From NCBI GenBank assembly GCA_052426225.1, contig JBNJNM010000021.1, forward strand, positions 1,054,001 through 1,118,000: a stretch of 64,000 bases of DNA. Direction: 5' to 3'. The notes under the pieces were generated by a model. The model was not told the origin of the DNA. It made no database searches and saw only the letters and a program-made list of their open reading frames with translations. Below, in pieces: positions 3,717 through 59,078 of this stretch. Made by a program: the position numbers and the translations under genes. Each line of letters starts with the position of its first letter. Positions within the stretch are counted from its first letter, which is position 1. The DNA comes from Zancudomyces culisetae HAW-14-8. Lineage: Eukaryota; Fungi; Kickxellomycota.

Positions 3717-4104
3717 TCTATCTTTTCTTGTTATATTCTTCCTCTCTATACTATTCAACATATTATTTTTCTTTACCTTATTAAAATATCATTAAACTGA
3801 TTTTCAACATTATCTTTCAAAGTAATGTGGTTTGATAGCACCAAGCCCCAGTAATTCCACTTTGGTTCTATTATTTGTTACCTATTCAATTTAACACGCC
3901 TCCCCCCTCCCATATTTACAATTTTATTTTATTTTATTTGTCTGTTTTGATGTCAATTGATATATGATATTTTACAACTATAAAAACAAGTTCGAGGGCA
4001 TAGAAACGATAAAGCGCTATACAGTAAACAAAAAAAAAAGCTTTCCCAGAGCACTAAGGTCAACATAACAATGCTACTCGCAGAATTTTTGAACTCCTTG
4101 GCAA

Positions 4105-30577: not shown

Positions 30578-30908
30578 TGTCGTATGAAGATACGATTTTA
30601 TATAATTAGCTTTATTTATTCATTAGGTTTTTAGTTAATAGTTTTGAGATTGGACCTTTTTTCCCCCTGTGGTTTTTGTCCAATAGTTTAGTTAGTTATT
30701 TACATTATATTTCCTCATTAATTATATTATTATCTGGGGGTTAAAGCAACCGCCCACTTTGAATTAAATAAAAACACATCTTAACAAAATTTTAAGTTAA
30801 ACATATATAGTATTAAAAAGAACAATAATACAAAAATAATATACTTAGTAATAACATATAATACAATAAGAATATTGAATAATCATAGAATTGTGAAATT
30901 CTATAACA
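30578..30908 (+). mobile_element. Solo LTR (331 bp) related to the element E LTR
   Basis: TGTCGTATGA...CTATAACA; shares GAGATTG-ACCTTTTT-CCCC-TGTGGTTTTTGTC with E; 4-bp TSD AACA; ends 8 nt before tRNA-Asn. Confidence 0.88.
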
Positions 30909-30990: not shown

Positions 30991-32537
30991 AACTTTTTAT
31001 AAAAATATTTATATTTTTTCTCATATAATAGCGAACTAACCTCGAATTAAAAGTATAATTACTAATGAATGTTAATTCATTACATTAATATAACTATATT
31101 TGTAACTATTAATATTAACTTTCAGTGGATATATCTAAATCATATAAATATTTATACATCATTAGACTTTGTTAATGGATTTACTCAAATATACGTTTAT
31201 ATTTACTTATTTATTGCAATTATTATTATATTTATTAGTAATATCAGTGTTTTATTATTTTTTTACTATATTAACATAATTTAATTCATTACTAATTTTA
31301 CAAAATATACGTAGTATATGTAGTTTTTATAATCATACAAAATATGTAAAGCATATTCCAATATGATTGGCTAAAGATTTATTTTTTTGATTTCCGTCTT
31401 CTTTATATTAACATGTTAAGAATTTCAAACATGATAATACATTTAATTTTATATGATAAACTATCCGTAAATGGTTTCCAAACTCTCTTAAAAATTGCAA
31501 TTGATATGATAGCAATATGGTGTAGCCATTATCTACAAATGATACTCTTCAATTTTTTAATGTAATTGTATATTTAATATGATGTAAGTTTTATCTAGTG
31601 TATTATTTATAAACAAAATAATTTTTAATAGTTATGTTAACTAAGTTCGTTAGAAATTTCATTCCGGTTTTAATTTCTTGTATTAACTCGTTTACATACT
31701 TTTTATAATTAGCTAGCTATTTTTTATATGTTAATAATATTTATTTACTTTTAGATAGAGTATATTAGTGTCCTGAACAAAATAAATCAAATTTAAAGAA
31801 ATACTAGTTAAGTAAGTGTAACTAAATGAATAAACTGTTCATAGGGAGTGTATCCTGGAAATAGTTGAGAAATTCTTAGTAGATAAAAAATTCGTTTCGA
31901 GGATCTGTGGTTATTATTATTATTTTTTGTGTTTGAGGAGATTGTTGATGAAAAATTGTTGAAGAAATTGAAAATTGATAGGAGATTTATATAATGTTGG
32001 AGTGACATTTTTTTTTGGTCAATCAGGTTCAAATTCAAACAGGTTTTTCTCCTCATCATTGTTTTTGTTGTATACTTTGTAGTACATCCGCATTTATTCT
32101 TTCCATCTCAAGAATAGTTGAAATGCTTTGTAGTTTTTTTCTGATAGTGCAGCCTCAGTTCTCGCTCTGAATTATTCCAGATGGCTGATGCTAAAATATT
32201 TTTATGTCTTTAATACGGTGCCTAATTTTGTTGCATCCAGACATAATTTCTTCCCAATTGAAGTCGATTTTTTCAATTTACCAAATTTTTTTCAAGGTGT
32301 GATAGATCAATGAATGTTTTTTTTTAGATTGGAAATAATAAGGAAAAAACATTATTTCAAAAACACTTGATCTACTACTGTCAGAATCGCATTATTTACC
32401 CATAAGTTTTAATATTTATTTTTAATCATATTTAATTACCTTTGAATCCTAACTTGGGAACATTAAGTTTCCCAACTTAAATAAATTAGTTTCCTGACAT
32501 TTTGGGAAACTTCTAATTATTGGTTGAAGAGTTAATC

Positions 32538-33488
32538 ATGGTCCACCAATTAGATGAGATCGCAAAATTAGCTATGCAACAAGCTTTGCAAGAAAGTCAA
32601 GCTCAAGCCCAGGCTCAAGCCCAGACACCCGCCCAAGTCCCCAGTCAGTTGCAGAATTTGCCTGCACCAAATCCGCAGCCAAGGATTGATGGTATCAGAA
32701 TACCAGAAATCCAGAAATACTCAGGAGAATCAGGAAGGTTCCGAGCCTTCACCGCCGAGATCAAGCGCCAGTTCTGGGCCAGACCAGACGTGTTCCAGAG
32801 TGACCATAACAAGATATGGTTCATCAGTTCTCACCTTGCCGGTCATGCTGCCCTGTGGTTCGATAACCTTATCGATACCCAATCACCGTTGCTCTCAGAT
32901 TTCAAAGGGTTTGAGAATGAATTTCAAAAGAGATTCTCAGATCCTGGCCACCAAGCCCGAGCTATCACCCAGCTTCATAGTTGTCGCCAGTCCCAGCGTT
33001 CCGTCCTGGAATTTGCAACCGAGTTCAGAAACCTCGCCTCTCTCAGTGGATTCAACGAGCCAGCCAAAATTCACCTGTTTTACATCGGATTGGATACTAG
33101 CCTTGTCCAGCGCCTTGCCACTGAACCGCTACCAAACACCTTGGACCAGCTCATTGATCAGGTGATTGAGCTTGAGAACAGAATCAATGCCCGCAGTGCC
33201 TACCTGCCCAAGAGAAGCGTCCCATTCCGCAACTGGAGTACTCCGGCTCCACCGGTCTTCCCCCGTCCAGCCATGCCTGTCCCAGATCACCAGGCTCCTG
33301 AACCAATGGACGTTGATGCCGTCACCTCCCGTCCAAGAGCACCGCTAGATACAGCCGAACGTCAGAGAAGATTAGCCAATAATCTTTGTCTATACTGTGG
33401 TCAGCCGAACCACATTCTCCGTAACTGTCCGCTCCGCAGGCCAAGACCCCCTATACCTGGGGTGCCAAAAGACAGTGCTCAGATGTAG
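32538..33488 (+). CDS. gag: Element C Gag (capsid plus CCHC zinc knuckle)
   Basis: PEPMDVD and CLYCGQPNHILRNC motifs; first ATG at 32538. Confidence 0.9.
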   Translation: MVHQLDEIAKLAMQQALQESQAQAQAQAQTPAQVPSQLQNLPAPNPQPRIDGIRIPEIQKYSGESGRFRAFTAEIKRQFWARPDVFQSDHNKIWFISSHLAGHAALWFDNLIDTQSPLLSDFKGFENEFQKRFSDPGHQARAITQLHSCRQSQRSVLEFATEFRNLASLSGFNEPAKIHLFYIGLDTSLVQRLATEPLPNTLDQLIDQVIELENRINARSAYLPKRSVPFRNWSTPAPPVFPRPAMPVPDHQAPEPMDVDAVTSRPRAPLDTAERQRRLANNLCLYCGQPNHILRNCPLRRPRPPIPGVPKDSAQM

Positions 33489-36400
33489 TCCGGGAGTTAC
33501 TCCTGAGCGTAGCAAATAATTCTAATATTTCTAGTAATAAATTTCATATTAAAGTTGTTTTAAATAATCTACACGAACTTGTTGCATTAGTGGACTCCGG
33601 TGCTTCAGCCAACTTTATTCGTCAAGATTTATTAGAAAAACTAAACCTCCCAACCAAAGAAGCAGAAAAAACCATCGTCCTAGAAAGTGTTGATGGTCAC
33701 CAGATATACCCAGGGGGCATAAATGTCAAGGTTGATAATGCCCATATCAAGTCCGGTCCTAACCACTCTGAACACCTAGACCTTATCCCGATTCCAACCA
33801 ATCACGCTGACATTATTTTTGGATTACCCTGGTTACGCAAACACAATCCTAGTATAACTTGGCCAGACCTCCAGATCCACTTCGACTCTGACTTTTGCAG
33901 TACAAATTGTGTTGATACCCACTCCATCCAGGCCGTGTTCAAGTTACCTGATGAACCAGATCCAGATCCAGTAGAACAAAATATTAGCCAGAATACGTCC
34001 ACAAACCCAACTATCCTCCAAAGGGTGTTGAATAGATTATCAACTACCCTGCTTCCACACAGTGCCAAGTTGCTCGAATCGGTCAAGTTGGACGATTCAA
34101 ACACTGAAAATCAAAGATTTTCACCGCCTCCGTCTCCTGATCTCCCCAGCCCAGCTCCGTCAAATCCATACGCCAGAATTGAAGAGATTCTTCCTGTTCC
34201 TGTTCCTGCACCAGTCCAATCAGTCACTCCAGAACCTGAAACCCAAAGTTTGCCCAAACCCACCGCTATTGAGAATCGAGTAAATAACCATGTTAAGCAA
34301 ATTCCTGAGCCCCGTCGTCCAGTAACCCCTGTTCCAAAAGTACCACTCAGACCTGAACTTCCCAAAGCAATCCTGAAGAAAATTGAGCCAAGAGAACCAG
34401 TCGTCAGATCCCGGCCATTTCATAAAAATACCCCAGTCACCACCCCCGAGCCAGAATATTCCTTGGATCCAGATCCTGTAAATTTTGCCGTTTCTGAGTC
34501 CCCGCTAGAGTACTTGGAAGAATTTCCGCAACTTCCAGTAATATACTCTGAATTCAAGGAAGTGTTCAATCCCAAGTCTGCCGTTTCACTTCCTCCTCAC
34601 CGCCGTTATGACTGTCCTGTCAACACCAAAGAGGGTTACACCCCATACTGGGGGCCAATATACCCGCTATCTGAAGTAGAGTTAGAGTCTCTAAGAGGTT
34701 ACATCCGCGAAAACCTCACCAATGGCTTCATCAGACGCTCTGTCTCCCCTGCCGGTGCACCAATCATGTTTGTAAAGAAGAAGTCTGGAGACTTGCGCCT
34801 TTGTGTTGACTACCGCCGATTGAACGAAGCTACCATCAAGAATAGGTACCCATTACCTAGGATTGATGAGGCGTTCGATCGGCTGCGTACAGCCAAGGTC
34901 TTTACAAAATTGGATCTCAAAGGTGCCTACAACTTGGTGCGGATCAAGGAAGGTGACGAGTGGAAAACTGCATTTAGGTGCAGATATGGCCACTTTGAGT
35001 ACCAGGTCATGCCATTTGGCTTGACAAATGCTCCGGCTACCTTTCAGCACTTTATCAATGATGTGTTACGAGATGTATTGGATCTCTATGCAATTGCATA
35101 CCTTGACGACATCTTGATATTTTCCAATGACACTGACACTCACATCAATCATGTGAAATCTGTTCTGAAAAAGCTGCTTGAAAATGGTCTGTACTGTAAC
35201 GCCGAAAAATGTCACTTCCATATCAGGGAAGTTGAATTTCTAGGCCATGTTGTGTCTTCAGATGGAATAGCCACCGATCCTGCTAAAGTCAAGTGTGTAA
35301 AGGAATGGCTACCACCCACCAATGTCAAGGAGGTCCAGAAGTTTCTCGGTTTTGCCAATTACTACCGAAAGTTTATCCCATACTTCTCGCTGAAAGCCCT
35401 GCCAATCACAAGACTTCTGAAAAAGGATACACCGTTCGTTTGGAGTAAGGAGGCAGGTGAAGCCTTTAATACTCTTATCCAGGATCTCACCACTTCCCCC
35501 GTTCTCAGATACCCTGACCCAGGGAAACAGTTTATTCTGGAAACTGACGCCTCAGACTACGCCATTGGGGCTGCTCTGTCCCAAGAAGATGAAAACGGAG
35601 ATCTCCGTCCTTGTGCCTACTACTCTTACAAACTCAACACTGCCGAATCCAACTATAATATCTATGACAAGGAACTTTTGGCAATCATCAAGGCTCTCAA
35701 AGAATGGCGACATCATCTGGAAGGCTCCTCCATCCCGTTCAAGATTCTTACTGACCATAAGAATCTGGAGACCTTTAAAAATCTGAAGTCACTCAACAGA
35801 AGACACGCAAGGTGGTCACTTGATCTCAGTAGATTCAGCTTCATCATAACCTACAGGCCTGGATCTCAAGGAGGCAAACCTGACGCTCTTTCTCGTTTAC
35901 CCAATCACACACCTGATAAGGTCGCCAACAACAACATCATAGGCGAAGACCACTTCATAGACATTATTAGCATAGTGGACAGTGATTTTGCTCAAGAAAT
36001 CGCCAAATCCAGCAAAGCCCATCTAGAAGGATTATTGGATGCCGCAAGATACCAGAGCAGCCATAAGTCTAACGAGCCTGTAGAAGTTGAAGATGGGATT
36101 GTAATGCTTGGAAACCGTGTTGTCGTCCCCGACAAAATGAAGCCGCAAGTTGTAAGTTCTAGACATGACAGTGGCCCAGCCGGCCATTTTGGTGCTAAGA
36201 AGACATTGGAGCTCGTGGAACGAGACTTTTGGTTTCCAGGAATGCGCAAATTTATTAAAGAGTTTGTTCAAACCTGTGATACATGCAATAGATCAAAGGA
36301 CAGAAGACACAAAGTTTACGGTAAACTACTTCCGCTACCCGCTCCCTCAGGCCCATGGAAATCTATCACCATGGATTTCATAACTGATCTTCCTCCATCC

Positions 36401-37414
36401 AACAAGCACACTACTATTATGGTAGTGGTAGACAGGTTCACTAAAATGAGCCATTTCATCCCGCTTAAGAAGCTGCCATCCTCAGAAGAAACTGCCTCCG
36501 CCTTCTTTACCCACGTATTCAAGCTTCATGGACTTCCAGACGTCATAATCTCAGACCGTGGAACCCAATTCTCGTCCAAATTTTGGAGTTCACTATTCAA
36601 ACTGCTCAAAGTTGATACTAGAATGTCTACAGCCTTCCATCCAGAGACAGACGGTCAAACGGAGCGGGTGAATCAAACATTGGAACAGTATCTACGCTGT
36701 TTCATCAACTATCAGCAAGATAATTGGTTTGAACTGCTCCCAATTGCCGAATTTGCTTATAACAACACTCTCCACTCCAGCACTAATACTTCTCCTTTCT
36801 TTGCTCTATATGGTTACCATCCAAGATTTGATCCTCAAATCACTAAAAACGTTCACGTCCCCAGCGCTTCTGATAGGATAAAACAACTCAAAGAACTTCA
36901 ATCAGCCCTCACTTCCATACTTAACAAGAAATCTCAGGAATATAAAAAGTATGCTGATGTAAACCGATCTGAACATCCAAAGTATAAACTAGGTGACAAG
37001 GTTTGGCTATCCAGCCAAAATATCAAAACTCAAAGGCCTTCTAAAAAGTTTGACCATAGACTTCTAGGACCTTTCACCATCTCTAAAATTATCAATCCTG
37101 TTTCTGTCCGTTTAGACCTCCCGCCATCAATGAAAATCCATAACACTTTTCATGTCTCGTTATTGGAACCGTATATCGAACCCAGCAGTAACCGCAGATT
37201 AATAGACAGTCCTCCTCCACCCCTAATTATAAATGGAAATAAAGAATATGAAGTTAAGGCTATTTTGGATTCTAAGCTTGTACGGGGTAAAAAATATTAC
37301 CTAGTTGATTGGAAAGGCTTTGATATAAGTGAAAGAAGCTGGGAGCCGATTGAAAACATAAACGCGCCTCAACTATTGAAAAAATACTATAAGACATATC
37401 ACAACAAACCATAA
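33425..37414 (+). CDS. pol: Element C Pol (PR-RT-RH-IN-chromodomain), in the -1 frame relative to gag
   Basis: LVDSGAS, YLDD, ETDASD, HHCC and DDE integrase, chromodomain YEVKAIL..YLVDWKGF..SWEP. The frame is open from 33425, overlapping gag. Confidence 0.92.
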   Translation: MSAPQAKTPYTWGAKRQCSDVVRELLLSVANNSNISSNKFHIKVVLNNLHELVALVDSGASANFIRQDLLEKLNLPTKEAEKTIVLESVDGHQIYPGGINVKVDNAHIKSGPNHSEHLDLIPIPTNHADIIFGLPWLRKHNPSITWPDLQIHFDSDFCSTNCVDTHSIQAVFKLPDEPDPDPVEQNISQNTSTNPTILQRVLNRLSTTLLPHSAKLLESVKLDDSNTENQRFSPPPSPDLPSPAPSNPYARIEEILPVPVPAPVQSVTPEPETQSLPKPTAIENRVNNHVKQIPEPRRPVTPVPKVPLRPELPKAILKKIEPREPVVRSRPFHKNTPVTTPEPEYSLDPDPVNFAVSESPLEYLEEFPQLPVIYSEFKEVFNPKSAVSLPPHRRYDCPVNTKEGYTPYWGPIYPLSEVELESLRGYIRENLTNGFIRRSVSPAGAPIMFVKKKSGDLRLCVDYRRLNEATIKNRYPLPRIDEAFDRLRTAKVFTKLDLKGAYNLVRIKEGDEWKTAFRCRYGHFEYQVMPFGLTNAPATFQHFINDVLRDVLDLYAIAYLDDILIFSNDTDTHINHVKSVLKKLLENGLYCNAEKCHFHIREVEFLGHVVSSDGIATDPAKVKCVKEWLPPTNVKEVQKFLGFANYYRKFIPYFSLKALPITRLLKKDTPFVWSKEAGEAFNTLIQDLTTSPVLRYPDPGKQFILETDASDYAIGAALSQEDENGDLRPCAYYSYKLNTAESNYNIYDKELLAIIKALKEWRHHLEGSSIPFKILTDHKNLETFKNLKSLNRRHARWSLDLSRFSFIITYRPGSQGGKPDALSRLPNHTPDKVANNNIIGEDHFIDIISIVDSDFAQEIAKSSKAHLEGLLDAARYQSSHKSNEPVEVEDGIVMLGNRVVVPDKMKPQVVSSRHDSGPAGHFGAKKTLELVERDFWFPGMRKFIKEFVQTCDTCNRSKDRRHKVYGKLLPLPAPSGPWKSITMDFITDLPPSNKHTTIMVVVDRFTKMSHFIPLKKLPSSEETASAFFTHVFKLHGLPDVIISDRGTQFSSKFWSSLFKLLKVDTRMSTAFHPETDGQTERVNQTLEQYLRCFINYQQDNWFELLPIAEFAYNNTLHSSTNTSPFFALYGYHPRFDPQITKNVHVPSASDRIKQLKELQSALTSILNKKSQEYKKYADVNRSEHPKYKLGDKVWLSSQNIKTQRPSKKFDHRLLGPFTISKIINPVSVRLDLPPSMKIHNTFHVSLLEPYIEPSSNRRLIDSPPPPLIINGNKEYEVKAILDSKLVRGKKYYLVDWKGFDISERSWEPIENINAPQLLKKYYKTYHNKP

Positions 37415-37534
37415 GAGCAACATTATATTTTATTATTTAACCAATATTATACCTAAATACTTATCAAAAAAAACTATAAAAACAACCTAAAAACAACTAA
37501 AAAGCATAAAAAATTATAAAAGAAAAAATAAAAT

Positions 37535-37797
37535 AAAAATGAACTTAGGAGGGCGCTAACGTCTTGGGCCACACAATCACGTGATTCGAATTAACTGCTC
37601 GAGATCCCGAAGGAGTTATCGGAGAGGTGAAACGGTCCGGTACTAGTCCCGAAGGACGTTATCGCGCACATTGGCCCCGTGAAACATCACATCCACTCTA
37701 CAGCTAATTACTTCCCAATTACGGTCTTACAGCGAAGGATCGAACCAGGGTCCTGCAGAATACAAGTTCGACGCCTTAGCCACTCGACTATAAGCTC
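37535..37797 (-). ncRNA. Candidate Pol III transcript in the element C 3' UTR: degenerate tRNA-like head, structured domain, T-run
   Basis: A-box TAGTCGAGTGG (37790-37780); B-box GGTTCGATCC (37746-37737); two C(UUCG)G hairpins (37657-37646, 37614-37605) inside a GGGCCA/TGGCCC stem; TTTTT at 37539-37535. Confidence 0.55.
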
Positions 37798-40700
37798 ACA
37801 TTTTTGTCCAAGATATTATTTTTATATATTTAAAATATTCTTTGAAGGGGGGATAATGTCAGAATCGCATTATTTACCCATAAGTTTTAATATTTATTTT
37901 TAATCATATTTAATTACCTTTGAATCCTAACTTGGGAACATTAAGTTTCCCAACTTAAATAAATTAGTTTCCTGACAACTACAGTCAAAGTAGGCGTGTT
38001 TGATAGTTTCGGTTTCGTTTCTTATACAGATTTTACAAAATGAATTTTCTATCGATCCAGTCCAACTCGATAATGTTTTCCCGGTTACAATTGCCCCATG
38101 TAAGATTAAATAAAGGTGAGATTTAATTTTTTCTTCAACCTTAAACCTATTAATACTATTCCAACTATAGATTTTACTGTTATCTGAAACTATATCTAGT
38201 TTGTAATAGTTTGGGGGGATTTTCCCAGTGTCGTTATAATTAAAATTAATATTCCTTTTTAATTCTCTGTTCATTGCATACTCTTCTGAGATTCCGTTTC
38301 CAAGATTTATTAGCGATGCCTGCAGAAAGTAATTCGGGTTCGACTGAGGTAACTGTTGGAAATTTTTTCAAGACAGTATAAACTAATGCTGAATTGAGTC
38401 TCTTTTCCAAAGGCAGTACTAGTGTATACTGGTTCATCAGTTGTATTTGCCTCGTTGTTTACTTGTGATAATGACATTAAAAAGTCATACACAGTATTAT
38501 ACCCTTTCTTTTTTAGGTCTCTTATTTCTTTGTTAGTTAATTCTTTTCCAAAAACCAATGGTTGAATAAAGAATATACATCAATTAATAATTTCACTAAG
38601 AGGTAATGTATATATGTCCCTATCATCCACATTAAATAGAATATTCCATACTTCAATAAACTTTTTTACTGAAGGGTGAATATCTCTTAGATTTTTAATG
38701 CTATTATGGAGTTCCATCAGTTCAGTAGCTAAATGTGGACCATAATTTGTTGTATTATATTTAAATTGGTGGTATCAGTAGCTTCTAGATAGTGAAATCC
38801 AGTCGCTATTGGGATCACCGGTTATAGTTGATGCTATCGCTTTTCCATAGATTAAATCTACTTGAGTTTTAACATCAATTAGTCCAAGACCACAAAGTTT
38901 TTTTGATAATTCAAGGGTGGTAAGTTTAATATTGAACTTTTTATTTGCCCAGATAAACTTTGAGGCAAGTTTCTTCACCTTTGACAAGAAGATTTTGTCG
39001 AAAATGACAATATGTGCTTCAAAATGTATATTTGAGTATAGAAATACATTTGTCAGCAATACTCTTCCTCTCAGTGAGAGAGATCTAAGCCTCATGGATA
39101 TAATTTTATTTTTCAATTTAGCTAGTAAGAGTTCTTGGGTATAGTTGGTGTTAACACCTTTGTTATTAAACCATATTCCCAAGTATATAAAGTTTTCATT
39201 ATCGGCGACTAATGGAAACTTAGTGGAAATCTCTTGAGGATTCCCTACCTTTATAGCAATTGATTTTTCGATATTCACTCGAGCATTAGATGCTTTGCAA
39301 TGAATATCAAGCCATATTATTACTATGTTAATGTCATCACTATCTTTAATACCTATAGCAATGTCATCCGCATATGCTATTGTGTTAAAGTTAGCTCCAG
39401 GTAGTTGAATACCTGTTAGGTCTTTTTTCAAACCTAGTAATAAAGGCTCAATTACTAGGTTATACAACAGGGGTGATAGTGGATCACCCTGTCTAAGACC
39501 ATTGTTGATTTGAATTTTATCCGTAAATACGGAGTTGACATTTACTCTAGTCGTAGCACTAGTGTAAATTGATTTAAGATATTGAATAAACTTGGGGCCA
39601 AGGCCAAAAGCATTCAAGCACTTAATGATATAATCCCAGTCTACTCTATCATAGGCTTTTTCTTGATATAAAAGAATCAAGTGCCCATTATATTTATCTG
39701 GGTCCAGTTGACTAAAACCCAAATGGTTATTAGTCATATGGATATTATCAAAGATGCTACGATTTTTGATAAACCCAGTTTGAGACTGGTTAATTAACTT
39801 ACCTAATATATTCTGCAACCTAGAGGCTAGAATTCTAGCTAAGATTTTCTCGTCACAATTAGATAAACTAATATAAAGATAGTTATTATTCAGCCTCAGA
39901 TCGCCGGTTTAGGGAATCAAAAAGATTATCGAACCTCCCAGATGCTCTTTATAGTCCTGGAGGGGTGAATTGAATAATTCATGAAGAATTATTGTAATCT
40001 CTTTTTCAAAGTGCTTGTAAAATTCAAAGGTCAATCCATCAGGTCCAGGTGCTTTATTCCTGGGACATTTTTGGATTGTTTTTAAATTTTCTCCATAGTT
40101 ATTGAGCTATCTAGCACTTATGCCTCCAGACTAGTTAGCCTATTTGTTATGATATTTAGTAATAAATCATGAAAATCCACCACTATTGTTCCTATATTTA
40201 ATAGTTTATTAAATAATTTATAATTATGACTAGAAATTTCATTATGAATATAAGAAGTAGAGTTATCTTCTACAAATATTTCTTCAATTTATTTTCTCTT
40301 TTCACGAGACTTTAATAAATTGAAAAAGTATTTGTTACTTTGCTCTCCCTTTCCAAAGTAATTGGCACTACTTCTAATAGCCATACCTCGACACTTATTT
40401 TCTAATTCTTTTTTTTAGCATATATCACAGTGTCCGGATTTTATAAGCGTTATTAATATCGTTACTCTTTACACAATTTATTTTGGACTTAAGCAAATTT
40501 GCTTTGTTTTTATACACTTTTTTACTAAAATCAATAAAATAGTCTTTAATCATTGATTTCGCTGTAGACCATTCAAGTAAATAATCTATAGTAGGATTAA
40601 AACTGTCCAAAATACCTTTGATAGATTCACAGGCTTTGTCATTTTTTAAGTGACTTGAGTTAAGTTTCCAATTGTCGTGGTTCTTTTTAGGAGAATCACA

Positions 40701-43278
40701 ACTTATTGGATCCTTCCTGTAACAGACTTCAATATATCGGTGATCCGAAAATGGCCCTACCTCAATCCTGAAGTTGTGATAGAATTGTAAACTATAATTA
40801 CAAACTAGGATGTGGTCGATTATTGACTTACTTTTTCCATCACCGCTTTCAAAGGTATACTCATTCCCATTTTCTTTATAATTAAAAATATTATGTAGAT
40901 TTATAAGATTAAAATGTGATATTATTATTATACTCTCCCACACAGTAGGTTTAATATCGGAGAATTTTGGTCCAAAACATTGCTTTGTACCATATTAAAG
41001 TCCCCCATCATTATAATAAACATATTGAGTAGGATGTCATATTTTTTTATTATTATCTCAAGACAGTTAATAAAGTTTTGTCTTTAGTTTTTGGAGTCTG
41101 ATGGGAATTGTAAATTAAAGTTATAAAACTCCTCATCGGTTTTGAGCTGTTTCAATCTGGCGAATATAACACGGCCGTCTATGAAAACATCACTCTCCAG
41201 TATTTTAAATTCATTATTATTTATTAAGATATCAGTTTGTAGTGCCCAAATGCAATCACCTCCCCATTGAGATGACCAAAACTGCTCATCCTCAGAAACA
41301 AAATGTACTTTCTGAAGACAAATTATGTCTGAGTTAGACATAAATTTAAAATTTTAAATGCTTCGGACTGTTTTTGATGGCTCCGTATACCCTTAATATT
41401 AAAAGTAAAAAATTTAATCATATATTATTAAATGAAATCCTACCTTAACAATCCAAATTCATATTTGATGAATTAGATTGTTTTTTCTTACCTACTGTTG
41501 TAGGATTAGGTAATCCCACTGTACCTGGCACAGTCCTACTTCTCAACACCCTATCAGTAATAATTGGGTGTCCTGGAAAAGCAATTTTTTGAGTAATATT
41601 ACTCTTTATCGCTTTTCCAGGTTTCTTTGAAGCCTGACTGGCTGGACCTTGATTGGCTAAATTATTTTCAGATATATCAACCTGATCCTGAGTCAATTGG
41701 GGAGTGGACTCTTGGGTTTCAGTAGGTTCTGCGGTCCCAATTTCATCGACCACCATCCCGTTTCCCTCTGACTGTTCCTCCTCAATTTGAGGTTGCTCAA
41801 CTGTAGGTTGAGCAGGAACAGTCGGAGTCTCAGGACCATTCTCAATTTCCTTATTTCTTTCAGGCTCTTCCGGCTCTCGAGCAATAGCAAGTTCCGCTTC
41901 GATTCTTTTTCAATCTCGGCATCCTTTGCTTTCTGAGACTGCTCTAGCTCCCTATTTATTTTTTTCTGAGCTTTGGAAAGATTGTTATTAGTTTTATCGC
42001 CTGTAATTAGTTTACCTTTTTTATTTATGTTATATAGTAACTATTTTTATAATTTTTTTTAGATTTATTTAGCTTTAACTCTGAGCAATCTGACTTCCAG
42101 TGTTACAAGCTTGAGCAGAAGGTACAGATTTTTGAGCACCCTAAAAACACCATAGGGATTATTTGCTCTTCGATCACCAAGCAGTTTGAGATCTCGATAT
42201 CTGCACTCTTCTTTACAAACAGGATCTTCGTGTCTAATGGCGCCACTCCAAAACAGTCAGTTGATTTCCAAGCACCAATATCTTTAATCTCACCTAGCGG
42301 TGCAAGAACTCTATAGGCTTCCTCAACGACCGCTTTAATGTGGTCCACCCAAAAGTCAGGAATGTGAATGCACGTACCTTCTCGCCATATGTAGGAATGG
42401 CCAATTTCCGAAACATAATTTTTAGTTACAATTTGGCTTACTAAAAATTTAACCTATTTTATTATTTCATTTCCGGTTTTCTATTATGCCATACCGATAT
42501 TGGAATCAAGCTTAAAAAAATCAACATGTTATCTCTAGTTATTATTGGGATAATTTACAAAGAAAATATAAGATAATTTCCAATAATTATATCCAACAAA
42601 ATCCATGATAAAATTAGATAATCCAAATCCATGATAAAACCGATTTACAAAATCAATATTAAAATTGATATACAAAATCATTGTTTTAATTGATTAACCA
42701 AATTATGTTAAAATTAACAAATGAAAACTATAAGTTTAACGATAATTAGTTACCTTAATCTTGTTATGAATAGAAGGTATTTCTATAAGTTTATTTTATT
42801 TAATTTTATTTTTATTATTCTTAAATTTGTAAGTTGAATTTCCATTTTAGTAAAGTTCCATAAATTGATTTAGGTAAACATGAAATTAATTAATACCATA
42901 TCCATTTTCAATTAACTGATATTATTTAAATATACCAAAACAACTCAATGTTGAACTAAACGCTAAAATTGAAATCATGAAACTAATCAAAGGTCAAACT
43001 CCTTGTATGTTTATCAAAGTAAGAAATTTTTTTCTTCAATAAACAAGGTCTTGCGACCTTGGTTTTTTTCAGGAAATTTTTGCTGTCGAAAAAGTATATA
43101 AATTCAACGTAATTCGTTGTGAAAATCGTCATAGAAAAATTTTCTCTTTAGTTTAATAAAGTTAATATATTTTTTAAATCAAGTTCATTAAATAAAATAT
43201 ATCTAGTTCTAACACATTTATTATCTTTAATATCAATTATTACCATATTGTATTTTAATAACAATATTTTTAAAATAC

Positions 43279-48498: not shown

Positions 48499-50521
48499 GT
48501 TAAATAACCAAAATAGCTTAAAAATAAAATAAAAGTATTTGAACTCTACCTAAACAGAAACCGTTGCAAATGGATAGTGTCTCACGATTCGAAGCCACAT
48601 TGGGAATTGACCCGGAAGAGTGGTTAAAACAGTTTAGATTAGTAGCCAAATTAAGTAAATGGGATCAAGATGATTGGGTTGATTTAGTACAGTTAAAGTT
48701 AGGAAAACGTGAATTAATCTGGTATAGGAAAAACGTTTCGAGTTTTAGTGACTGGACCACATTCACAGTAGCATTTAAAGAAAAATTCTCAACTACGGAG
48801 GATGGTTAAATGAGCTATGATATACTGAAAGGGATCAATCAAAGTAATTACGAGTCTATTGAAGAATTTGAGTTTGCTATGGAAAATGCTTTGGAAAAAG
48901 CAGGAATAACAGAGGCTACAGCAAAGTACAACTGTTTAGTGAGTGCATTGTGTGAAGATGTGAAAAGTAAGGTCAGAGAAATGAGTTTGAATACGTGGGA
49001 CAAGGTTATCAAATGGGTGTTAGATAAGGAAAGACATGAGAGACGAGTCACAACACAAACATCTGACCAGGACTTTACCAAGAATTTGAATGCAAAACAT
49101 GAGTTAAATAGTGCTAAGGCAAATTCTGATAGTGGATATGACGCAATGTTGGAAAAGATGGAGGAATGGTCTTTAAATTTGTTGAGCAAAGTTGATGAAG
49201 CAGTTGAGAGGAGATTAAGCGAAAACAGGAGAAAAAGATATACCAATAATTATCCAAGAGTTATCACCTGCTTTCATTGCCGTAAGGAAGGTCACAAAAG
49301 ATATGAGTGTCCGCGTTTGAAGGAAAATGATGGTATAACAGAAACGAAACGTGCTAACAACGTGAACTTTTTAGAGGTAAGCCGAGAGAATGATCATTCT
49401 AAAGAAATATTAACTGTGCAGCGTAGGGGTACATCACCTAAACAGACCTCACCTTATTCCAGAGAAGAGTTCATTGAAACACCAAAGAAAGTGGGAAACA
49501 CAGATAGAATTAGGTATGTTAAAGCCGTAGATCAGCACATGGATGTGGAAGAGCAGAAGTCGGTAGACTTGAAAAAAACAACTGTCTCAAAACCGAGAGC
49601 GGGAATAAAAAGTAATAAACAGGTGGCTGAAGAAGAAAATATAGAAGAGGTAACAAAGCCAAAAGTTAAAACGGAATTGAAAATGGCTGAAGGAATACAA
49701 CCATTCTCGTTAGTAGAACAACTGGCTAAGTGGAACCCGACTATTTCCTTTCCTCAGCTCATGAGCGTGGCTCCTTCACTGAATAGTGAAATGATTAGCT
49801 TATGCAAGAAAACCAAGAAGCAAGAGATTAATGAAATTAGATTTGCAAAACCCCGTACAACAAATTGCAGGATAATCGTTTCAGTTTATAGTAAAGAAAT
49901 ATGGGCAGTGTTAGGAATTGTTTTAAAATAAATTAAATAAATTCATGTTTATTATAATTCTCCATGACCAAATCAAGTAGGTTACAAAATGAAATTGTAA
50001 CCATATACAAATTACTATAATGTAACTAAGTACAAATTAATTAAATGTAACTAAGTACAAATTAATTAAATGTAACTAAGTACAAATTATTAAATTAATC
50101 TAACCAAGTCAAGTAAAAAATGAATTTCGCGATGAAATTTGTTATAATAATATTCACAGACCATTTTAGGAAATAAGAAACCTAGAAAGAATTCCGAAAC
50201 TAATAATTCAAAGAATCGTCAGAATAACATGAATGACGCAATCATTGACACACTAAACTCACGGTAGTTAATCACATCAGTTACTCATAAGTTTAATAGT
50301 CAAATTTATAGTTTGATAGCAACTTTACTTAAGAAAATTTTATATGGAAAAATCTCTGGAGTAAAAGTATAAAAACCCTTTCGAAATCCATCGAAAGAGA
50401 ACTTCAGAGAAAAATATCTTATTCACTATTGAATACCATATTTTTCTAAATAATTAATAGTAATAAATAATTTAATCTTAAAATATTCAAGTCTTAACAT
50501 AATATTTTTCTCTCTTGAATC

Positions 50522-51508
50522 ATGTCCGAAGAACCAATCTTAACCAATGAGATGGTTCAAACTCTCATGAACCAAATGGCCAGACTCACAGAAGAAGTAG
50601 ACACGCTCCGCCAGTCCGCCAATGTCCAAAGAGGACTGATCCCAGAACCCAAGGTGCCATCACCAGAGAAGTTTTCAGGGTCCAGAAAGGACAATGTAAA
50701 AAACTTCTTATCCACAGTTTCCACAGTCTTCAAGCTCCAGCCTAGCCGTTTCCCGACCGATCACGTAAAAGTCCTGTTCATAGGCACGCTGTTGACCGAG
50801 GGGGCACAGACCTGGTTCCGAACCCTTCAAGAATCCCGTCATCCGATCCTGTTCCAGTACGATAACTTTGTGGCACAGCTTGACCGCACCTTTGGGGAAC
50901 CAAACGCGGTTTGGATAGCCCAAAACAAGTTAAACAACCTCCGCCAGGGGAAATCACGGTGCCTAGCGTTCACGAACCAGTTCAAGTCCATTGCCCTAGA
51001 GACCGACTATAATGAGCCTGCACTGCTCAAGTCTTATTATGAGGGTCTCAACGACGAAATCAAAGACGCCCTATCGACCCTAGAATCACACCCGCCAGGA
51101 TTTGAAGATTTTGCCGCACTCTGTATCCGGATAGATAACCGCATCTATCAGCGCAAAGCCGAGAAAATCAAGATAAAACCATGGATTCCGCCCTCTCACT
51201 TCTCCAACCGAGAAATAACCCGTATGGACGTAGACTCAATGGGGATCAAAAGAGTTTCCGAGTCCGAAAGAGATAACAGAAAGTATAACCGTCTCTGTTT
51301 CTACTGTGGTGGAGATAAACACACCGTCTCCACATGTCCACGCAAATTCCGCAATCAAGAAGCCATGAGTTCCAGAAGCAGTTCGCCCATCAGAAAGTTC
51401 AAGACCTCATTGCCGAACAGAAAGAAGCCCGGAATTATCAAGCTTCCGCCATTTGAATTAAAGGATTCAAAAAACCACAGAACTCTTCAGAAATCGGAGG
51501 GTATCTGA
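50522..51508 (+). CDS. gag: Element F Gag
   Basis: PEKFSG, MDVD and CFYCGGDKHTVSTC motifs. Confidence 0.9.
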   Translation: MSEEPILTNEMVQTLMNQMARLTEEVDTLRQSANVQRGLIPEPKVPSPEKFSGSRKDNVKNFLSTVSTVFKLQPSRFPTDHVKVLFIGTLLTEGAQTWFRTLQESRHPILFQYDNFVAQLDRTFGEPNAVWIAQNKLNNLRQGKSRCLAFTNQFKSIALETDYNEPALLKSYYEGLNDEIKDALSTLESHPPGFEDFAALCIRIDNRIYQRKAEKIKIKPWIPPSHFSNREITRMDVDSMGIKRVSESERDNRKYNRLCFYCGGDKHTVSTCPRKFRNQEAMSSRSSSPIRKFKTSLPNRKKPGIIKLPPFELKDSKNHRTLQKSEGI

Positions 51509-51527
51509 AGAACACAGCGGGACCCTC
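51469..51527 (+). promoter_or_regulatory. -1 programmed ribosomal frameshift signal (A AAA AAC plus H-type pseudoknot)
   Basis: Slippery heptamer 51469-51475 in gag phase; 8-nt spacer; stem 1 TCTTCAGA/TCTGAAGA; stem 2 GAGGGT/ACCCTC; the -1 frame is open into the protease. Confidence 0.85.
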
Positions 51528-54500
51528 AAGATCCACAGTTTTTAATACTTACTTTCTTAATAATACTAAATTTTCAAATAATTTTTTAATTAATATCAAG
51601 TTAAAATATAAAAATAAAAAGATACATACCACGGCTCTAGTTGACACTGGAGCATCAGGAAATTTTATAAGGAAAAATCTTATAACCAATCACAGTATCA
51701 TGATCCAAAGTTTGGATAAACCCATAGAAATAATTCTAGCAAATAACAAACCTGCTAGTCAAAGACTAATCACCGAAACCACAGTACCACTAGAAATCAT
51801 GATAAACAAACATCAATGTTCAACGACTTTCCTTGTGGTGCCAACACTCAGTTATCCTGTTATTCTAGGATTACCATGGTTAAAACAACAACAACCAATT
51901 ATCGATTGGAAAAATTTGAAATTAAGATTTAATTCTACTAATCCTCAAGCATTCATTCCTACAGAGATCAACAATATAACTTTAACTGAAAAATGTTTTG
52001 ACCCATATGAAGACTCTGACGATGAAGAGTTATATGAAAATCATGCCGAAGAAATACCCATAAAATACCGAGAATACGCCGATGTATTTTCCAAGAAGAA
52101 AGCAGATACTCTACCAGCACTAAGACCGTATGACTGTGAAATACCCTTAAAAGACCCAGAAGCCAAGATTCCGTTTAAGCCATTATACAACCTATCAGGT
52201 CCAGAGCTCAAAGCATTAGACGAATATATCAAAGAAAACCTACAAAAAGGGTTCATTAGAAGAAGCCACTCCACCGCTGGGGCTCCAATTTTCTTTATTA
52301 AGAAAAAAGATGGTGGTTTACGACCCTGTATTGATTATAGGGACCTAAATGAACTCACGGTAAAAGATCGGTACCCCTTACCCCTGATTTCAGAACTTTT
52401 AGATCACCTCAATGATGCCAGAATATTTACTAAAATAGATCTGAGAGGTGCATATAACTTAGTTCGCATGAAACCAGGCGAAGAATGGAAAACCGCCTTT
52501 AGATCCCGATATGGTCACTTTGAGTACTTAGTCATGCCGTTTGGACTCACCAACGCGCCCGCAGTTTTTCAGGCCATGGTCAATGACATATTCAGAGATA
52601 TGCTAGACATATCTGTAATAGTATATCTTGATGATATACTAATATTCTCAAGAAGCCAAGAGGCTCATGATAACCATGTGAAAGAAGTCTTGGAAAGACT
52701 GAGAACCCATGGACTATATGCCAAAATTGAAAAATGTCAATTCGACCAGAATTCAGTGGAATTCTTAGGATACGTAATCTCTGACAAAGGAATATCCATG
52801 AGCCCAGACAAAGTACAGACGATTACAACCTGGGAAACTCCAACAAACGTCAAAGGTGTAATGAGTTTCTTAGGCTTTGCAAATTTTTACAGAAAATTCA
52901 TTCTAAATTACTCAAAAATAGTCCGACCGCTAACTAATTTAACCAAGAAGGACGTCACCTTCTCATGGACCCAAGAATGCCAGGATGCATTCGAATACCT
53001 AAAGAAAACAGTAACCTCAGCACCGATACTCGCACATCCCAATCCAAAGTTACCTTTCAGTCTAGAATCTGATGCATCCGATTTTGCCATTGGTGCCGTA
53101 TTGAACCAACCAGTTTCAGAAACAGATCCAACACTCCACCCTGTAGCATTCTACTCTCGTAAACTAGTAGATGCTGAAATTAACTATGATGTTCATGATA
53201 AAGAATTACTAGCCATAGTAAATGCCTTTAAACACTGGAGACACTATCTAAGCGGTGCTGTGCACCCAATATCAGTATTTTCAGATCACAGAAATCTTAC
53301 ATTCTTTAGAACCAAGCGTATATTAAAACAAAGACATGCAAGATGGGCAATACTCTATCAGAATTCGATTTCAAGTTATGTTACAGACCAGGTGTATTAA
53401 ATCCCGTAGCAGACGCATTGAGCCGGAGGACCGACTTAATATCTAAGGAGGGGGGTGAGTATACAAACCCTCAAAACTATGAGACTACTCTACTTCCAGA
53501 CACAAGATGGATCAACACAGCTACCATTAATAAAAACACCCTTACTGAATCCGAAAAACTAGAAATCATTCAGACACGTCATGACGGATTAACCGCAGGA
53601 CATTTAGGTCAAAGAAAGACGTACGAACTCATAGCCAAAGATTACCAATGGAAAGGAATGAGAAAGTTTATTCAAGATTATATCAAGGGATGCGAAACCT
53701 GCCAAAGAAACAAAGTTCACAGACACAGAAAGTATGGACTCCTAAATCCATTACCAATCCCAGACAAACCATGGTCATGCATTTCAATGGACTTCATAGT
53801 CAAATTACCAGTTTCTCAAGGATACGACTCTATTCTGGTAATAGTATGTCGTCTCACTAAACAAGCACATTTTATTCCATGCAATGAATCAATAGACGCA
53901 GCCGGAACTGCTAAGTTGTTTATTAAAAACATATTCAGACTCCATGGGCTACCCCTAGACATTATATCTGACAGGGGGCCACAATTCAGGTCAAGATTTT
54001 GGAAAGAAGTCATGAATTCACTAGACGTGAAGATTAACCTAACCTCAGCTTATCATCCAGAATCTAATGGACAAACCGAAAGAGTAAACCAGACATTAGA
54101 ACAGTATTTAAGAAACTACGCCAATTACAATCAAGACAATTGGGCAGAACTACTTCCATGTGCAGAATTCTCATATAACAACTCAGTAAATGTTAGTACA
54201 AACAAGTCTCCGTTTTATTCTAATTACGGATTTAACCCAAGAGCAGATCACTTACATAACTCAAAGAACTACCAATCCAATCCAGCAGCTACAGACTTCG
54301 TAAAGAACATTCAAGATAACTTAACTATTATAAAAACCTCATTGCAAGAAGCACAGGAAAGATCTGAAAAACAAACAAACAAGAAAAGAAAAGAAACCAA
54401 GTACAAAATAAATGATCTAGTATGGTTAGATCGAAAGAATCTCAAAACTCATAGACCATCAAGAAAATTAGATAATCAAAGAATAGGACCTTTCAGAATA

Positions 54501-54833
54501 ATTCAGGAAATAAACAAAGTAGCGTACAGACTCGAGCTTCCTGACACAATGAAAATTCATAACGTATTTCATGTATCACTACTAGAACCCTATCATGAAC
54601 CAGTAATCAAAGGGCAGGCAAGAAAACCACAAGAGCCTATATCCATAGATGGTGAAGAAGAATGGGAAGTAGAAAAAATCTTAAAAGTCAAGAAAGTCAG
54701 AAATAAGGAATACTACCTTATCAAATGGAAGAATTTTACAGAAATTGAAAACACTTGGGAACCAGAAGAAAATTTAACAAACTGCCAAGAAGAACTTATT
54801 AAATTCAAGAATTCACTAATTACCAAATCATAG
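51475..54833 (+). CDS. pol: Element F Pol (PR-RT-RH-IN-chromodomain) with one 1-nt frameshift near 53350
   Basis: LVDTGAS, YLDD, ESDASD, integrase, chromodomain WEVEKIL..YLIKWKNF..TWEP; ORFs 51700-53400 and 53343-54833. Confidence 0.88.
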
Positions 54834-57800
54834 TACGATCTCCGAGACCTCAATCATAAGAAGGAGGGTGATGTTAGGAATTGTTTTAAAATAAATTAAA
54901 TAAATTCATGTTTATTATAATTCTCCATGACCAAATCAAGTAGGTTACAAAATGAAATTGTAACCATATACAAATTACTATATTGTAACTAAGTACAAAT
55001 TAAATAAATGTAACTAAGTACAAATTATTAAATTAATCTAACCAAGTCAAGCAAAAATGAATTTCGCGATGAAATTTGATATAAAAATATTCACAGACCA
55101 TTTTAGGAAATAAGAAACCTAGAAAGAATTCCGAAACTAATAATTCAAAGAATCGACAGAATAACATGAATGACGCAATCATTGACACACTAAACTCACG
55201 GTAGTTAATCACATCAGTTACTCATAAGTTTAATAGTCAAATTTATAGTTTGATAGCAACTTTACTTAAGAAAATTTTATATGGAAAAATCTCTGGAGTA
55301 AAAGTATAAAAACCCTTTCGAAATCCATCGAAAGAGAACTTCAGAGAAAAATATCTTATTCACTATTGAATACCATATTTTTCTAAATAATTAATAGTAA
55401 TAAATAATTTAATCTTAAAATATTCAAGTCTTAACAGGCAGTAGTCGATACGGGTGCTGCTTGTTCGGTGGCTACGCCCAGAATGATTGAAAATTGGGGT
55501 CTGGAAGTAGACGAGGAACATGACCAAGTGATAATCACCGCAGATGGAATGAAACATAATTCTTTAGGAACAGTTAAAGATGTACCTTTAAGGATTGGTA
55601 ACTGCAAGTTTGCCGCAAATCTGACAATAATGCAGAGGAAGGATAATAGCTTGATATTAGGCATGGACTGGCTAATGAGCCATCATGCACAATTGAACAT
55701 ACGGGATTCGGAGCTTAGGCTACCCTTAGAGAGAATAGTAATTATTGTACCCTTACACATGCAAGAAGTATCAGAGTACGAGGACTGTGATCATAGTGAA
55801 CTGTTTCTAATGATAAAAGAAAACATGCAAGTTGAAGATGAGTTGAGGTATAATGACTCTAGAATTGATGAATTGAAGTCAAATTATGAAGACATATTTG
55901 CAGACGACATTGAAGATTTGACTCAGACGGAACAAACTGAACATAGAATAGTGCTCAAGGACAAAACGCCAGTTAAATTGAAGCCTTATAGAATACCTCA
56001 CCACTTGTACGCTAAAGTCAGAGATGAACTACAAGTTATGGAACAGAAAGGCATAATATCCAAGTGCATTTCAGAATGGTGTTCCCCTGTGGTCACCGTT
56101 TGGAAGAAAAATGGTAAGCTACGGATTTGCACAGATTATAGGAGACTAAATTTGCAGACCAAGAAGGACACGTATCCACTGCCTACAATAGAAGATATTT
56201 TTATGGCAGTGGCAGGATCAAAAGTTTACTCTTCTCTTGATGCGCTTAGCGGATTTTGGCAAATCCGCATGGCCAAAGAGGATAGAGAAAAAACTGCTTT
56301 TTCGATTCCCGGTACAGGAAGTTTTTGTTATAACGTGATGCCGTTTGGGCTGACAAATAGCCCAGCATCATTTCAAAGATTGATGGAGAGAGTGTTAGAA
56401 CCAGTACTTTGGAAAACCGCAATAGTCTTTGTGGACGATATAATAGTATACTCTCAAACTATGGACGAGCACTTGAAACATCTAGGAGAGGTTTTTAACT
56501 TGTTGAGAGTAGGAAAGGTTCAGCTACATGGAGAAAAGTGTTATTTAGAAATGAAACAGCTAGAATACCTAGGTCACGTCATAACTACCGAAGGTGTTAA
56601 AACAAGCACAAAAAAAGTTGAATCGATCCTAAAAGCAAGGACGCCTACTACAGTCAAGGAACTGCAGTCATTCTTGGGATTGATCGGATTTTATAGGAAA
56701 TATGTTGAACAGTTTGCAACAACTGTAGCCCCGCTATTAAAGCTATTAAAGAAAAACACAGAGTGGAAATGGGACCAGAACTGTGAGCAGGCAATAAAGG
56801 AGATAAAAACAAAAATGTCAACTGCGCCCACACTAGCACACCCCGATTGGAACCGCGAGTTCATTGTTACCACAGACGCTTCGGTGACTGGAATAGGTGG
56901 CATATTATCTCAGCGTTTTGAGGATTCAGAAAAACCTATATGTTTTATTAGCAGGATAACAAATAAACACGAACGAAATTATTCGATATCACACTTGGAA
57001 GGGCTTGCTGTGATATGGTCGATACAGAAGCTAAAATATTATCTTTGGGGCAAGCACTTTACAGTGCGTACAGATCACAAAGCACTCTTGCAGCTTTTTG
57101 ACTCTAAGGAAATTACAGGGAGAATAGCCAGATGGGCTATGATCCTTCGTAATTATCATTATACTATTGAACACTGTCCCGGAAAAAACAATCCGGCAGA
57201 TGCGTTGTCTCGTTTAAATCCAGAAAATGCAGAGAATTCAGAAGACTTAACTAGAGAATTGAATATTTATTTACTATCAAGTGCGGAATATAATTCTATT
57301 AAAACATATATTAACAATTATACTTTCCCAGAAAATAGTTCAGAAAGTGATAAAAAAAGAATACGAAATAAGTCAGCTAAGTATAAAATAAGGGATAATA
57401 AATTGGTAAGAATTATAAAAGGAAACATTAAGGAAGTGTTACACGAAGATACGATGCGCAACACAGTTGAACGAGTGCACAATGAAAATCATAATGGAAT
57501 TGTAAACACGTGGGAAAGAGTTAAGGAAGTATATACTGGGGAAGGACTATTCGACACGGTTAAAAGGGTAGTAGAACAATGTCATGAATGTCAATTATAT
57601 AAAGGAAGTAGAATCAAGAGAAATGTTTTGCACCCGATTTATTCATATAAACCGTTTAGTGTCTTCGGACTGGATGCAATAGGACCAATTAGTCCTATCT
57701 CAAAGTCTGGAAATAGGTTTATTTTAACCGGTATAGACTACCTAACAAAATGGCCTGTAGCACAAGCGGTCGAAAACATCAAGTCGGATACAATAGTTAA

Positions 57801-58920: not shown

Positions 58921-59003
58921 GGTTAGATGGCCGAGTTGGTCTAAGGCGCCGCGTTAAGGCCGCGGTCTCTCCGGAGGCGTGGGTTCGAATCCCACTCTAA
59001 TCA
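58921..59003 (+). tRNA. tRNA-Leu(AAG)
   Basis: Acceptor GGTTAGA/TCTAATC; anticodon arm CCGCG-TTAAGGC-CGCGG; long variable arm. Confidence 0.95.
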
Positions 59004-59005
59004 CC

Positions 59006-59078
59006 GGGGAACTAGCTCAAATGGTAGAGCGGGCGCTTCGCATGCGTCAGGTACCGGGATCAATGCCCGGGTTCTCCA
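59006..59078 (+). tRNA. tRNA-Ala(CGC)
   Basis: Acceptor GGGGAAC/GTTCTCC with G3:U70; anticodon loop TTCGCAT; T6 terminator at ~59084-59089. Confidence 0.95.

Follow-up and report, generated by a model that had tools for sequence, protein, structure and literature searches.

The window analysed here is a stretch of 64,000 nucleotides from Zancudomyces culisetae, a member of the Harpellales, which are insect-gut symbionts. The threonyl-tRNA synthetase of the window shows 100% identity to that of Z. culisetae, followed by Smittium with 72-75%. The window contains an autonomous LTR retrotransposon of approximately 5.6 kb (32379-37977), hereafter element C, with the following components:

32379..32499, plus strand: 5' LTR of 121 nt (TG...CA), with the TSD ACTAC directly before it
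32465..32475, plus strand: putative self-primer, an 11-nt LTR segment that matches, as its complement, what directly follows the 5' LTR, with an 11-bp pairing in the fold of 32465-32539
32500..32512, plus strand: primer-binding site (PBS) without a TGG/tRNA signature
32538..33488, plus strand: gag ORF, with capsid and CCHC knuckle
33425..37414, plus strand: pol ORF (PR-RT-RNaseH-IN-SH3-chromodomain), 1329 codons, uninterrupted
37844..37853, plus strand: polypurine tract (PPT), as read from the sequence
37857..37977, plus strand: 3' LTR, followed by the TSD ACTAC

The domain order is that of Ty3/gypsy elements with a C-terminal chromodomain. Element C is intact and very young, since its two LTRs are identical (0/121 differences), and a 5-bp TSD is present on both sides. 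The exact sequences of its Gag and of its ATG-started Pol were absent from the protein collection searched. The PBS is complementary to a segment of the LTR instead of a tRNA (11-bp pairing), and the assignment of this putative primer follows the self-priming layout of Tf1/Tj1, in which the PBS pairs with an LTR segment (PMC4600332, excerpt). Because element C appears to prime itself through this 11-bp LTR pairing, it should need no tRNA primer, and a tRNA-like sequence would be dispensable in that role. The LTRs also harbor an inverted repeat (32449-32475 and 37927-37953), by which a PBS-like word in U3 can pair with the self-primer segment; at the 3' end of the element C RNA, this word could mask the second primer copy. 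The whole element sits inside a minus-strand LINE-like RT element (31900-32378 and 37978-41000), just after a CCHC-like motif near the C-terminus of the LINE.

The 3' UTR of element C, after the pol stop (37414) and before the PPT, contains a GC island of 258 nt (37540-37797) with 50.8% GC, compared with 15.2% (37415-37539) and 13.0% (37798-37843) in its flanks. An earlier interpretation made from the letters of the DNA (the sequence-only reading) had placed a GC-richer cassette between the pol stop and the PPT, and this location is borne out. Read on the minus strand, the cassette and its surroundings comprise:

37804..37828, minus strand: upstream AT-rich flank, with a TATA-like word at -31 and a CAA at -9, both weak
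37540..37797, minus strand: predicted Pol III RNA body, 258 nt, with +1 = 37797 by the tRNA register
37723..37797, minus strand: tRNA-Thr(UGU)-like head; anticodon, T and in-register acceptor stems broken; not called by ARAGORN or Rfam
37791..37797, minus strand: 5' strand of the predicted closing stem (nt 1-7, the tRNA acceptor position), pairing with 37541-37547
37780..37790, minus strand: A box (nt 8-18)
37737..37746, minus strand: B box (nt 52-61)
37647..37685, minus strand: module 1, consisting of GTTTCAC, a 14-nt spacer, CGATAAC, G and TCCTTCGGGA
37605..37633, minus strand: module 2, the same three blocks as module 1, with a 5-nt spacer
37566..37677, minus strand: domain enclosed by GGGCCA/TGGCCC, with a pair probability of 0.99/0.70/0.05/0.96 in four energy models
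37541..37564, minus strand: 3' arm of the terminal helix; its last 7 nt are the partners of nt 1-7, and a single A and the T5 come next
37466..37539, minus strand: array of nine T4-T8 runs, the first of which (T5, 37535-37539) is the predicted terminator and the others predicted back-ups

A profile built from the five tRNA genes of the window matched the head of the cassette at E=5.5e-4, and the head was the sole non-tRNA among the 6 hits at E<=10 in the 64 kb. With an A+B-box matrix trained without the cassette, the head scored 24.0; the five training tRNAs reached 24.8-26.4, and no shuffled control exceeded 20.1. The A+B pattern, which was written after seeing the sequence, occurred in 45 of 200,000 shuffles. 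By these sequence comparisons, the tRNA likeness of the head is beyond chance, and the sequence-only reading was correct in describing a degenerate tRNA-like head with intact A and B boxes and broken anticodon and T stems. The promoter boxes are near-native, while all three non-promoter stems (acceptor, anticodon, T) are broken, and a test of the head as a tRNA gene, negative with ARAGORN and Rfam, revealed no cloverleaf with these stems paired in register. Nucleotide 54 is a T (T54), a register shared with tRNA-Thr and tRNA-Ala of the host, and TGT occupies the anticodon position; the Thr isotype is taken solely from this triplet, the pairwise scores to host tRNA-Asn and tRNA-Pro having exceeded that to tRNA-Thr(CGT). 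A 12-nt palindrome with a CACGTG core is present in the body of the cassette, and there is no second copy of the cassette within the 64-kb window. A PBS-like word in the cassette, TTGGGAA, was discarded as being at chance level (p=0.41).

A feature absent from the sequence-only reading is a predicted stem that closes the 5' and 3' ends of the RNA. The A-box register independently sets nucleotides 1-7, and these are predicted to pair with the 7 nt preceding one A and the T5 run; the outer pairs have a probability of at least 0.98 in all four energy models, and further short helices extend the stem to approximately 19 end-to-end pairs. A 7-bp closure exactly between +1 and the terminator was reproduced in 0.3% of 50,000 body shuffles, 19 end-to-end pairs were reached by 7/300 body shuffles, the duplex energy of the end pairing corresponds to p=0.008 (5000 shuffles), and 4/510 and 2/510 of the pol 27-mers pair equally with the first 30 nt of the cassette RNA, all of these p-values being post hoc and of modest to moderate strength. 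Since the partner strand lies approximately 180 nt beyond the acceptor 3' strand of a tRNA, the predicted stem would be a property of the long RNA.

The T5 run at the end of the cassette had likewise been described correctly, and the cassette lacks an internal T4, as do 32% of shuffles. Downstream, the nine T4-T8 runs fall within 74 nt; a density of nine T runs per 125 nt occurs in 3 of 5110 sliding windows (both strands, 64 kb), with none higher, and has p=0.07 once the composition of the spacer is taken into account. Retroelements commonly have A-rich sense strands; there are 7.2 sense A-runs per 100 nt in the spacer of element C versus 0-2 in other pol-to-LTR or LTR-flanking regions. On the other side of the cassette, the TATA-like word and CAA occurred together in 1.7% of flank shuffles (CAA alone in 8%, the TATA-like word alone in 19%), and upstream motifs of this kind have been reported to aid Pol III initiation (PMC13578239, excerpt). 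The observation of a CAA common to the cassette and four host tRNA promoters was dropped, as all four CAA words come from LTR ends or TSDs located 6-8 nt upstream. A plus-strand TGTC, identical to the start of the element C LTR, at 37804-37808 begins 7 nt upstream of the cassette +1; this is the same spacing as in tRNA-targeted insertions and might reflect chance or a relic.

The duplication of the module, as claimed earlier, is supported by 24 collinear identical bases, a number that 1/5000 shuffles reaches, and TCCTTCG is present a third time directly after the B box on the minus strand. The two C(UUCG)G hairpins that were thought to form in these modules are mostly not predicted in the four energy models (Turner2004/Turner1999/Andronescu/Langdon), the ensemble probabilities being 0.01/0.13/0.82/0.12 for module 1 and 0.003/0.03/0.13/0.01 for module 2. 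Forcing both hairpins costs 5.4 kcal/mol, and in module 2, an alternative CCGA/UCGG hairpin is favored over the UUCG hairpin in all four models. One such UUCG hairpin arises in 109/20,000 shuffles, and the two count as one event because module 2 is a copy of module 1. As modeled, the UUCG hairpins are the weakest part of the cassette and not a robust prediction, so that the observation of the sequence-only reading stands with regard to the reality of the cassette but not with regard to the formation of both hairpins. The enclosure of the domain by GGGCCA/TGGCCC is intermediate: it is favored in three energy models but not in the fourth (0.05). The predicted fold of the whole RNA is no better than that of shuffles (minus strand z 0.19, 114/200 shuffles folding as well; plus-strand fold of the island z 0.33), and the module domain folds worse than shuffles (100-nt windows, z +1.2 to +1.8). 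The longest predicted uninterrupted helix of the cassette RNA has 10 bp (probability above 0.15), and the predicted helices include G-U pairs valid on the minus strand only.

Parts of element C were found in 6 of the 8 sequencing runs listed, with low depths. A contig from run X5 spans 37387-37604 and joins the end of pol, the spacer and the 3' 65 nt of the cassette; its differences, i.e., three substitutions and one listed gap (of two), are all located in the A-rich spacer. A contig from run X1 covers 37554-37728 with one difference, and the eight listed gag-pol pieces of X1 contain 24 differing sites over approximately 2.1 kb. The sequence-only reading had pointed to other copies of element C as the place to look for the cassette; because the X1 and X5 contigs carry its 3' part, this part is not private to the present insertion. 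In other copies, the cassette was not significantly better conserved than the spacer or pol (Fisher p 0.55 and 1.0, respectively), and none of the contigs listed from four runs spans the tRNA head (37732-37803). Two loose ends of X1, at 37469 and 37839, were considered as the cassette in another context and rejected, as they consist of 18-21-nt AT-rich matches, both within a single unrelated contig.

BLAST searches of the cassette against 79 and then 174 loci of related elements gave no match at E<=1. The B-box pattern was found in 0/59 related loci with a pol end and the strict A+B pattern in 1/174 loci (L096, two sense hits beyond the PPT). The A+B matrix reached a best antisense score of 17.5, below the control maximum of 20.1, in the 114 of the 174 loci that have at least 200 nt after pol and are mostly 35-55% identical in Pol. 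The antisense unit is thus not a general chromovirus feature, because 0/114 related elements have one above the control. Weak matrix hits in L060 and L073 were abandoned after the tRNA profile had found nothing there. The module pattern had 0 matches in viral contigs and 0 in prokaryote contigs, and blastn against phages yielded one 31-nt match with E=0.9. Two unrelated autonomous gypsy elements have sense tRNA-like blocks past the PPT, within the LTR, namely, L096 (two blocks, 4832-4889 and 5008-5055) and L136 (approximately 3940-4020, with a perfect T-arm kept). A CTCG...CTCG-type motif directly before the PPT occurs in L001, L003, L007, L106, L110, L113, L114, and L116 and, judged by eye, is apparently missing there in element C. 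Loci L100-L174 are 75 eukaryote-type gypsy loci from records titled bacterial or archaeal genomes and likely represent contamination.

Several known systems share individual traits with the cassette. Helenus elements (TRIMp3; Kojima 2024), whose fungal examples were aligned to tRNA-Thr, resemble element C in carrying a tRNA-derived sequence in an LTR retroelement, with the A and B boxes kept and the cloverleaf lost; they are non-autonomous, mostly <1 kb and contain the tRNA part inside both LTRs as a presumed promoter (PMC10886601, excerpt). Element C, in contrast, is an autonomous element of 5.6 kb with an intact gag and a 1329-codon pol instead of a short non-coding one, and its head (37723-37797) lies outside the LTRs (32379-32499, 37857-37977), with no second copy. 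Its unit occurs once, internally and in antisense orientation, with a terminator of its own and a body of 180 nt, and is unable to transcribe the element. Transcription of the element from a Pol III promoter in the LTRs of the non-autonomous Cassandra and Helenus has been shown for the former and proposed for the latter (PMC10886601, excerpt). The analogy to Cassandra drawn in the sequence-only reading is accordingly loose: a Pol III unit in an LTR retroelement is common to both, but that of element C is located outside the LTR, antisense and self-terminated in an autonomous element.

A closer likeness in layout, a Pol III unit in a mobile genome otherwise read by Pol II, is provided by viral noncoding RNAs, e.g., adenovirus VA, EBER, the MHV68 tRNA-pre-miRNA chimeras (TMERs), and the pre-miRNAs of BLV and foamy virus (Tycowski et al. 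2015, PMC4378190, excerpt). The TMERs have a tRNA-like head with added domains, and BLV has a subgenomic Pol III unit in a retro-element (PMC4378190, excerpt). These are animal viruses with demonstrated transcripts, whereas the cassette, which at the sequence level also combines an internal A/B promoter with an oligo-T terminator, is a predicted unit and belongs to a fungal host. It further differs in being antisense to the 3' UTR of its genome and in offering neither an intact tRNA for RNase Z nor a long pre-miRNA hairpin (stems broken; longest helix, 10 bp).

With respect to element C itself, its self-priming relatives form a group that we take to be the Tf1/sushi type. Element C resembles these Ty3/gypsy elements in its chromodomain integrase and its PBS complementary to an 11-nt LTR segment (PMC4600332, excerpt) but differs in the Pol III unit of the 3' UTR, which was seen neither in the literature searched nor in the 114 related loci. 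According to Kojima, tRNA-like parts occur in "not a few" of the LTRs in Repbase (PMC10886601, excerpt). The open-access literature covered, including term searches of the accessible portions of PMC2864245, PMC5006619, and PMC5911963 and with subscription journals and Repbase entries outside its scope, described no autonomous LTR retrotransposon with a tRNA-derived unit that lies antisense in the internal 3' UTR and carries its own terminator. The accessible text of the crapaud paper contains 0 occurrences of "tRNA" or "pol III" (PMC10787394), and a supposed tRNA fragment in Skipper-2 was not borne out, with 0 occurrences of "tRNA gene fragment" in the accessible text of PMC5006619.

Position, orientation, boxes, register, T runs, end complementarity and the presence of the 3' part in other copies are all established in the DNA. 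The boxes, the terminator, the redundant T runs and the closing stem agree with the earlier proposal of an own Pol III unit of approximately 260 nt, which remains a prediction from sequence architecture. Transcription of the cassette by Pol III, with a start at or near 37797 and a stop at 37539, is probable. TFIIIC and TFIIIB would recruit Pol III, which would start at or a few nucleotides before 37797 and stop at 37539. The old 5' strand of the tRNA acceptor would now close the whole RNA of approximately 260 nt and stabilize the molecule, and the redundant T runs would keep the antisense transcript out of pol. In the weakest link of this chain, the cassette RNA or its Dicer products would pair with the genomic RNA, cutting translation, packaging or reverse transcription. 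Element C may thus carry an antisense tRNA-derived Pol III gene and use its product, which would be fully complementary to the genomic RNA, as a self-limiting brake. An RNA closed on itself would be less free to pair as an antisense, and transposons are usually under weak selection to repress themselves. We nevertheless prefer this reading, tentatively and with less than even confidence, because the genomic RNA upstream of the PPT would be the exact complement of the cassette RNA and because a Dicer, non-canonical and unvalidated, is listed for Z. culisetae (PMC12663654, supplement file 6, excerpt).

A close rival to this brake, which we hold to be somewhat doubtful, is a mere passenger: the element would have taken up a complete tRNA-derived Pol III gene of the host, AT-rich flanks included, which is maybe still transcribed without being of use to the element. 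The GC-rich body between AT-rich flanks, the TATA-like and CAA words and the terminator have the look of a captured gene, related elements are without the cassette, and decay may have had no time because element C is very young (0/121 LTR differences). However, there is no second cassette copy in the 64 kb, other copies keep the 3' part despite the 24 differing sites over approximately 2.1 kb of listed gag-pol pieces, and the element should bear some cost from a convergent Pol III unit next to the PPT. The function might also reside in the DNA: TFIIIC bound to the A and B boxes could form a barrier in chromatin, block Pol II, or tether the cDNA to clusters of tRNA genes, with the RNA being incidental. 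The boxes are the best-preserved part of the cassette, the body is not unusually stable as RNA and contains the 12-nt palindrome with the CACGTG core, and the chromodomain would imply insertion into silent chromatin. Such a role is nonetheless unlikely, as it leaves the end-closing stem, the terminator right after this stem and the 180-nt body unexplained.

The adenovirus VA RNA has a terminal stem, and the cassette shares with it the promoter class and the closed-end design. An abundant closed Pol III RNA could saturate Dicer/Argonaute or another RNA sensor and thereby protect the element; VA RNA is processed as a substrate by Dicer and can impair the biogenesis of small RNAs (PMC4378190, excerpt), and Dicer is listed for the host (PMC12663654, excerpt). 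Counter-defense of this type is improbable, since any small RNA cut from the cassette RNA would be a perfect antisense match to the RNA of the element itself and since a longest predicted uninterrupted helix of 10 bp is short for a Dicer substrate. Still less credence is given to a sense-strand cis element acting in the genomic RNA, i.e., in packaging, dimerization or 3'-end formation, for which the tRNA origin would be history. Its location adjoining the PPT, three CGAAGGA repeats, a palindrome of 12 nt that could dimerize and two AATAAA words just before the island would be in line with such a role, but the plus-strand fold is ordinary (z 0.33), the predicted helices rely on G-U pairs that hold on the minus strand only, and near-native boxes would be unnecessary.

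Highly improbable, and largely refuted for the known classes, are a retroposed SINE and a self-cleaving ribozyme, both of which had been considered in the sequence-only reading. A SINE2 is defined by a tRNA-derived head with an internal promoter followed by an unrelated body (PMC10886601, excerpt), and the cassette has both of these parts. It differs from SINE2 in its gene-like upstream flank and in its ends, which are closed by a stem, and the "captured SINE" fails on two further points. No TSD is present at the cassette edges, the only repeats being AT-rich 7-8-mers away from them, and the 3' tail is T-rich on the strand of the head instead of A-rich, simple-repeat or LINE-derived; similarity to the neighboring LINE, the only one compared, is limited to a 15/16 match (E=0.97). 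The interpretation of the terminal inverted repeat as a MITE was likewise rejected for want of a TSD. Short conserved motifs that recur in a domain with poor folding can be a sign of tertiary structure, as would be expected of a ribozyme, but the "novel ribozyme" found no support: the Rfam search proposed at the time returned nothing better than E=2, and there were 0 hammerhead CTGANGA cores and 0 hits of a custom HDV-like descriptor on either strand of the UTR. Judged by its sequence, the cassette resembles a type-2 Pol III gene carried by a mobile genome, yet it falls outside Helenus/TRIMp3, SINE2, tRNA genes, TMER/BLV RNAs and the known ribozymes.

Where Pol III promoters have been described in LTR retroelements, they act as substitute promoters and lie within the LTRs of tiny non-autonomous elements. 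A self-contained antisense Pol III gene in an autonomous element would represent a different use, with an RNA product as in animal viruses, and one B box would be a compact mutable handle on retrotransposon self-limitation or the countering of RNAi in early-diverging fungi. A more speculative and rather doubtful generalization is that autonomous fungal chromoviruses may encode their own Pol III regulatory RNA, for which a tRNA gene would have been remodeled into a closed molecule of 260 nt, lying antisense next to the PPT and selected to tune their own replication or host RNAi; this RNA would be the retrotransposon counterpart of VA, EBER, and TMER RNAs and possibly evolved repeatedly. If the cassette is a mere captured host gene, it would still point to an uncatalogued tRNA-derived RNA family in Harpellales.

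The remainder of the window harbors a second chromovirus (49909-55436) with LTRs of 566-591 nt, which is nested in a Ty3-like element and has a pol-to-LTR gap of approximately 38 nt with no cassette. At all four tRNA promoters of the window (Thr, Asn, the Leu-Ala pair, and Pro), an LTR end is located 6-8 nt upstream of the mature tRNA 5' end (positions 21703, 30578-30908, 58909-58913, and 59800), and 4-bp TSDs were seen for Asn and Leu. These insertions look like Ty3-type targeting in Harpellales; a term search of the accessible part of PMC5911963 gave 0 occurrences of "Zoopagomycota." The genes for tRNA-Leu(AAG) and tRNA-Ala(CGC) were called back to back at 58921-59078, with no spacer or terminator, and possibly give rise to a dimeric tRNA transcript.
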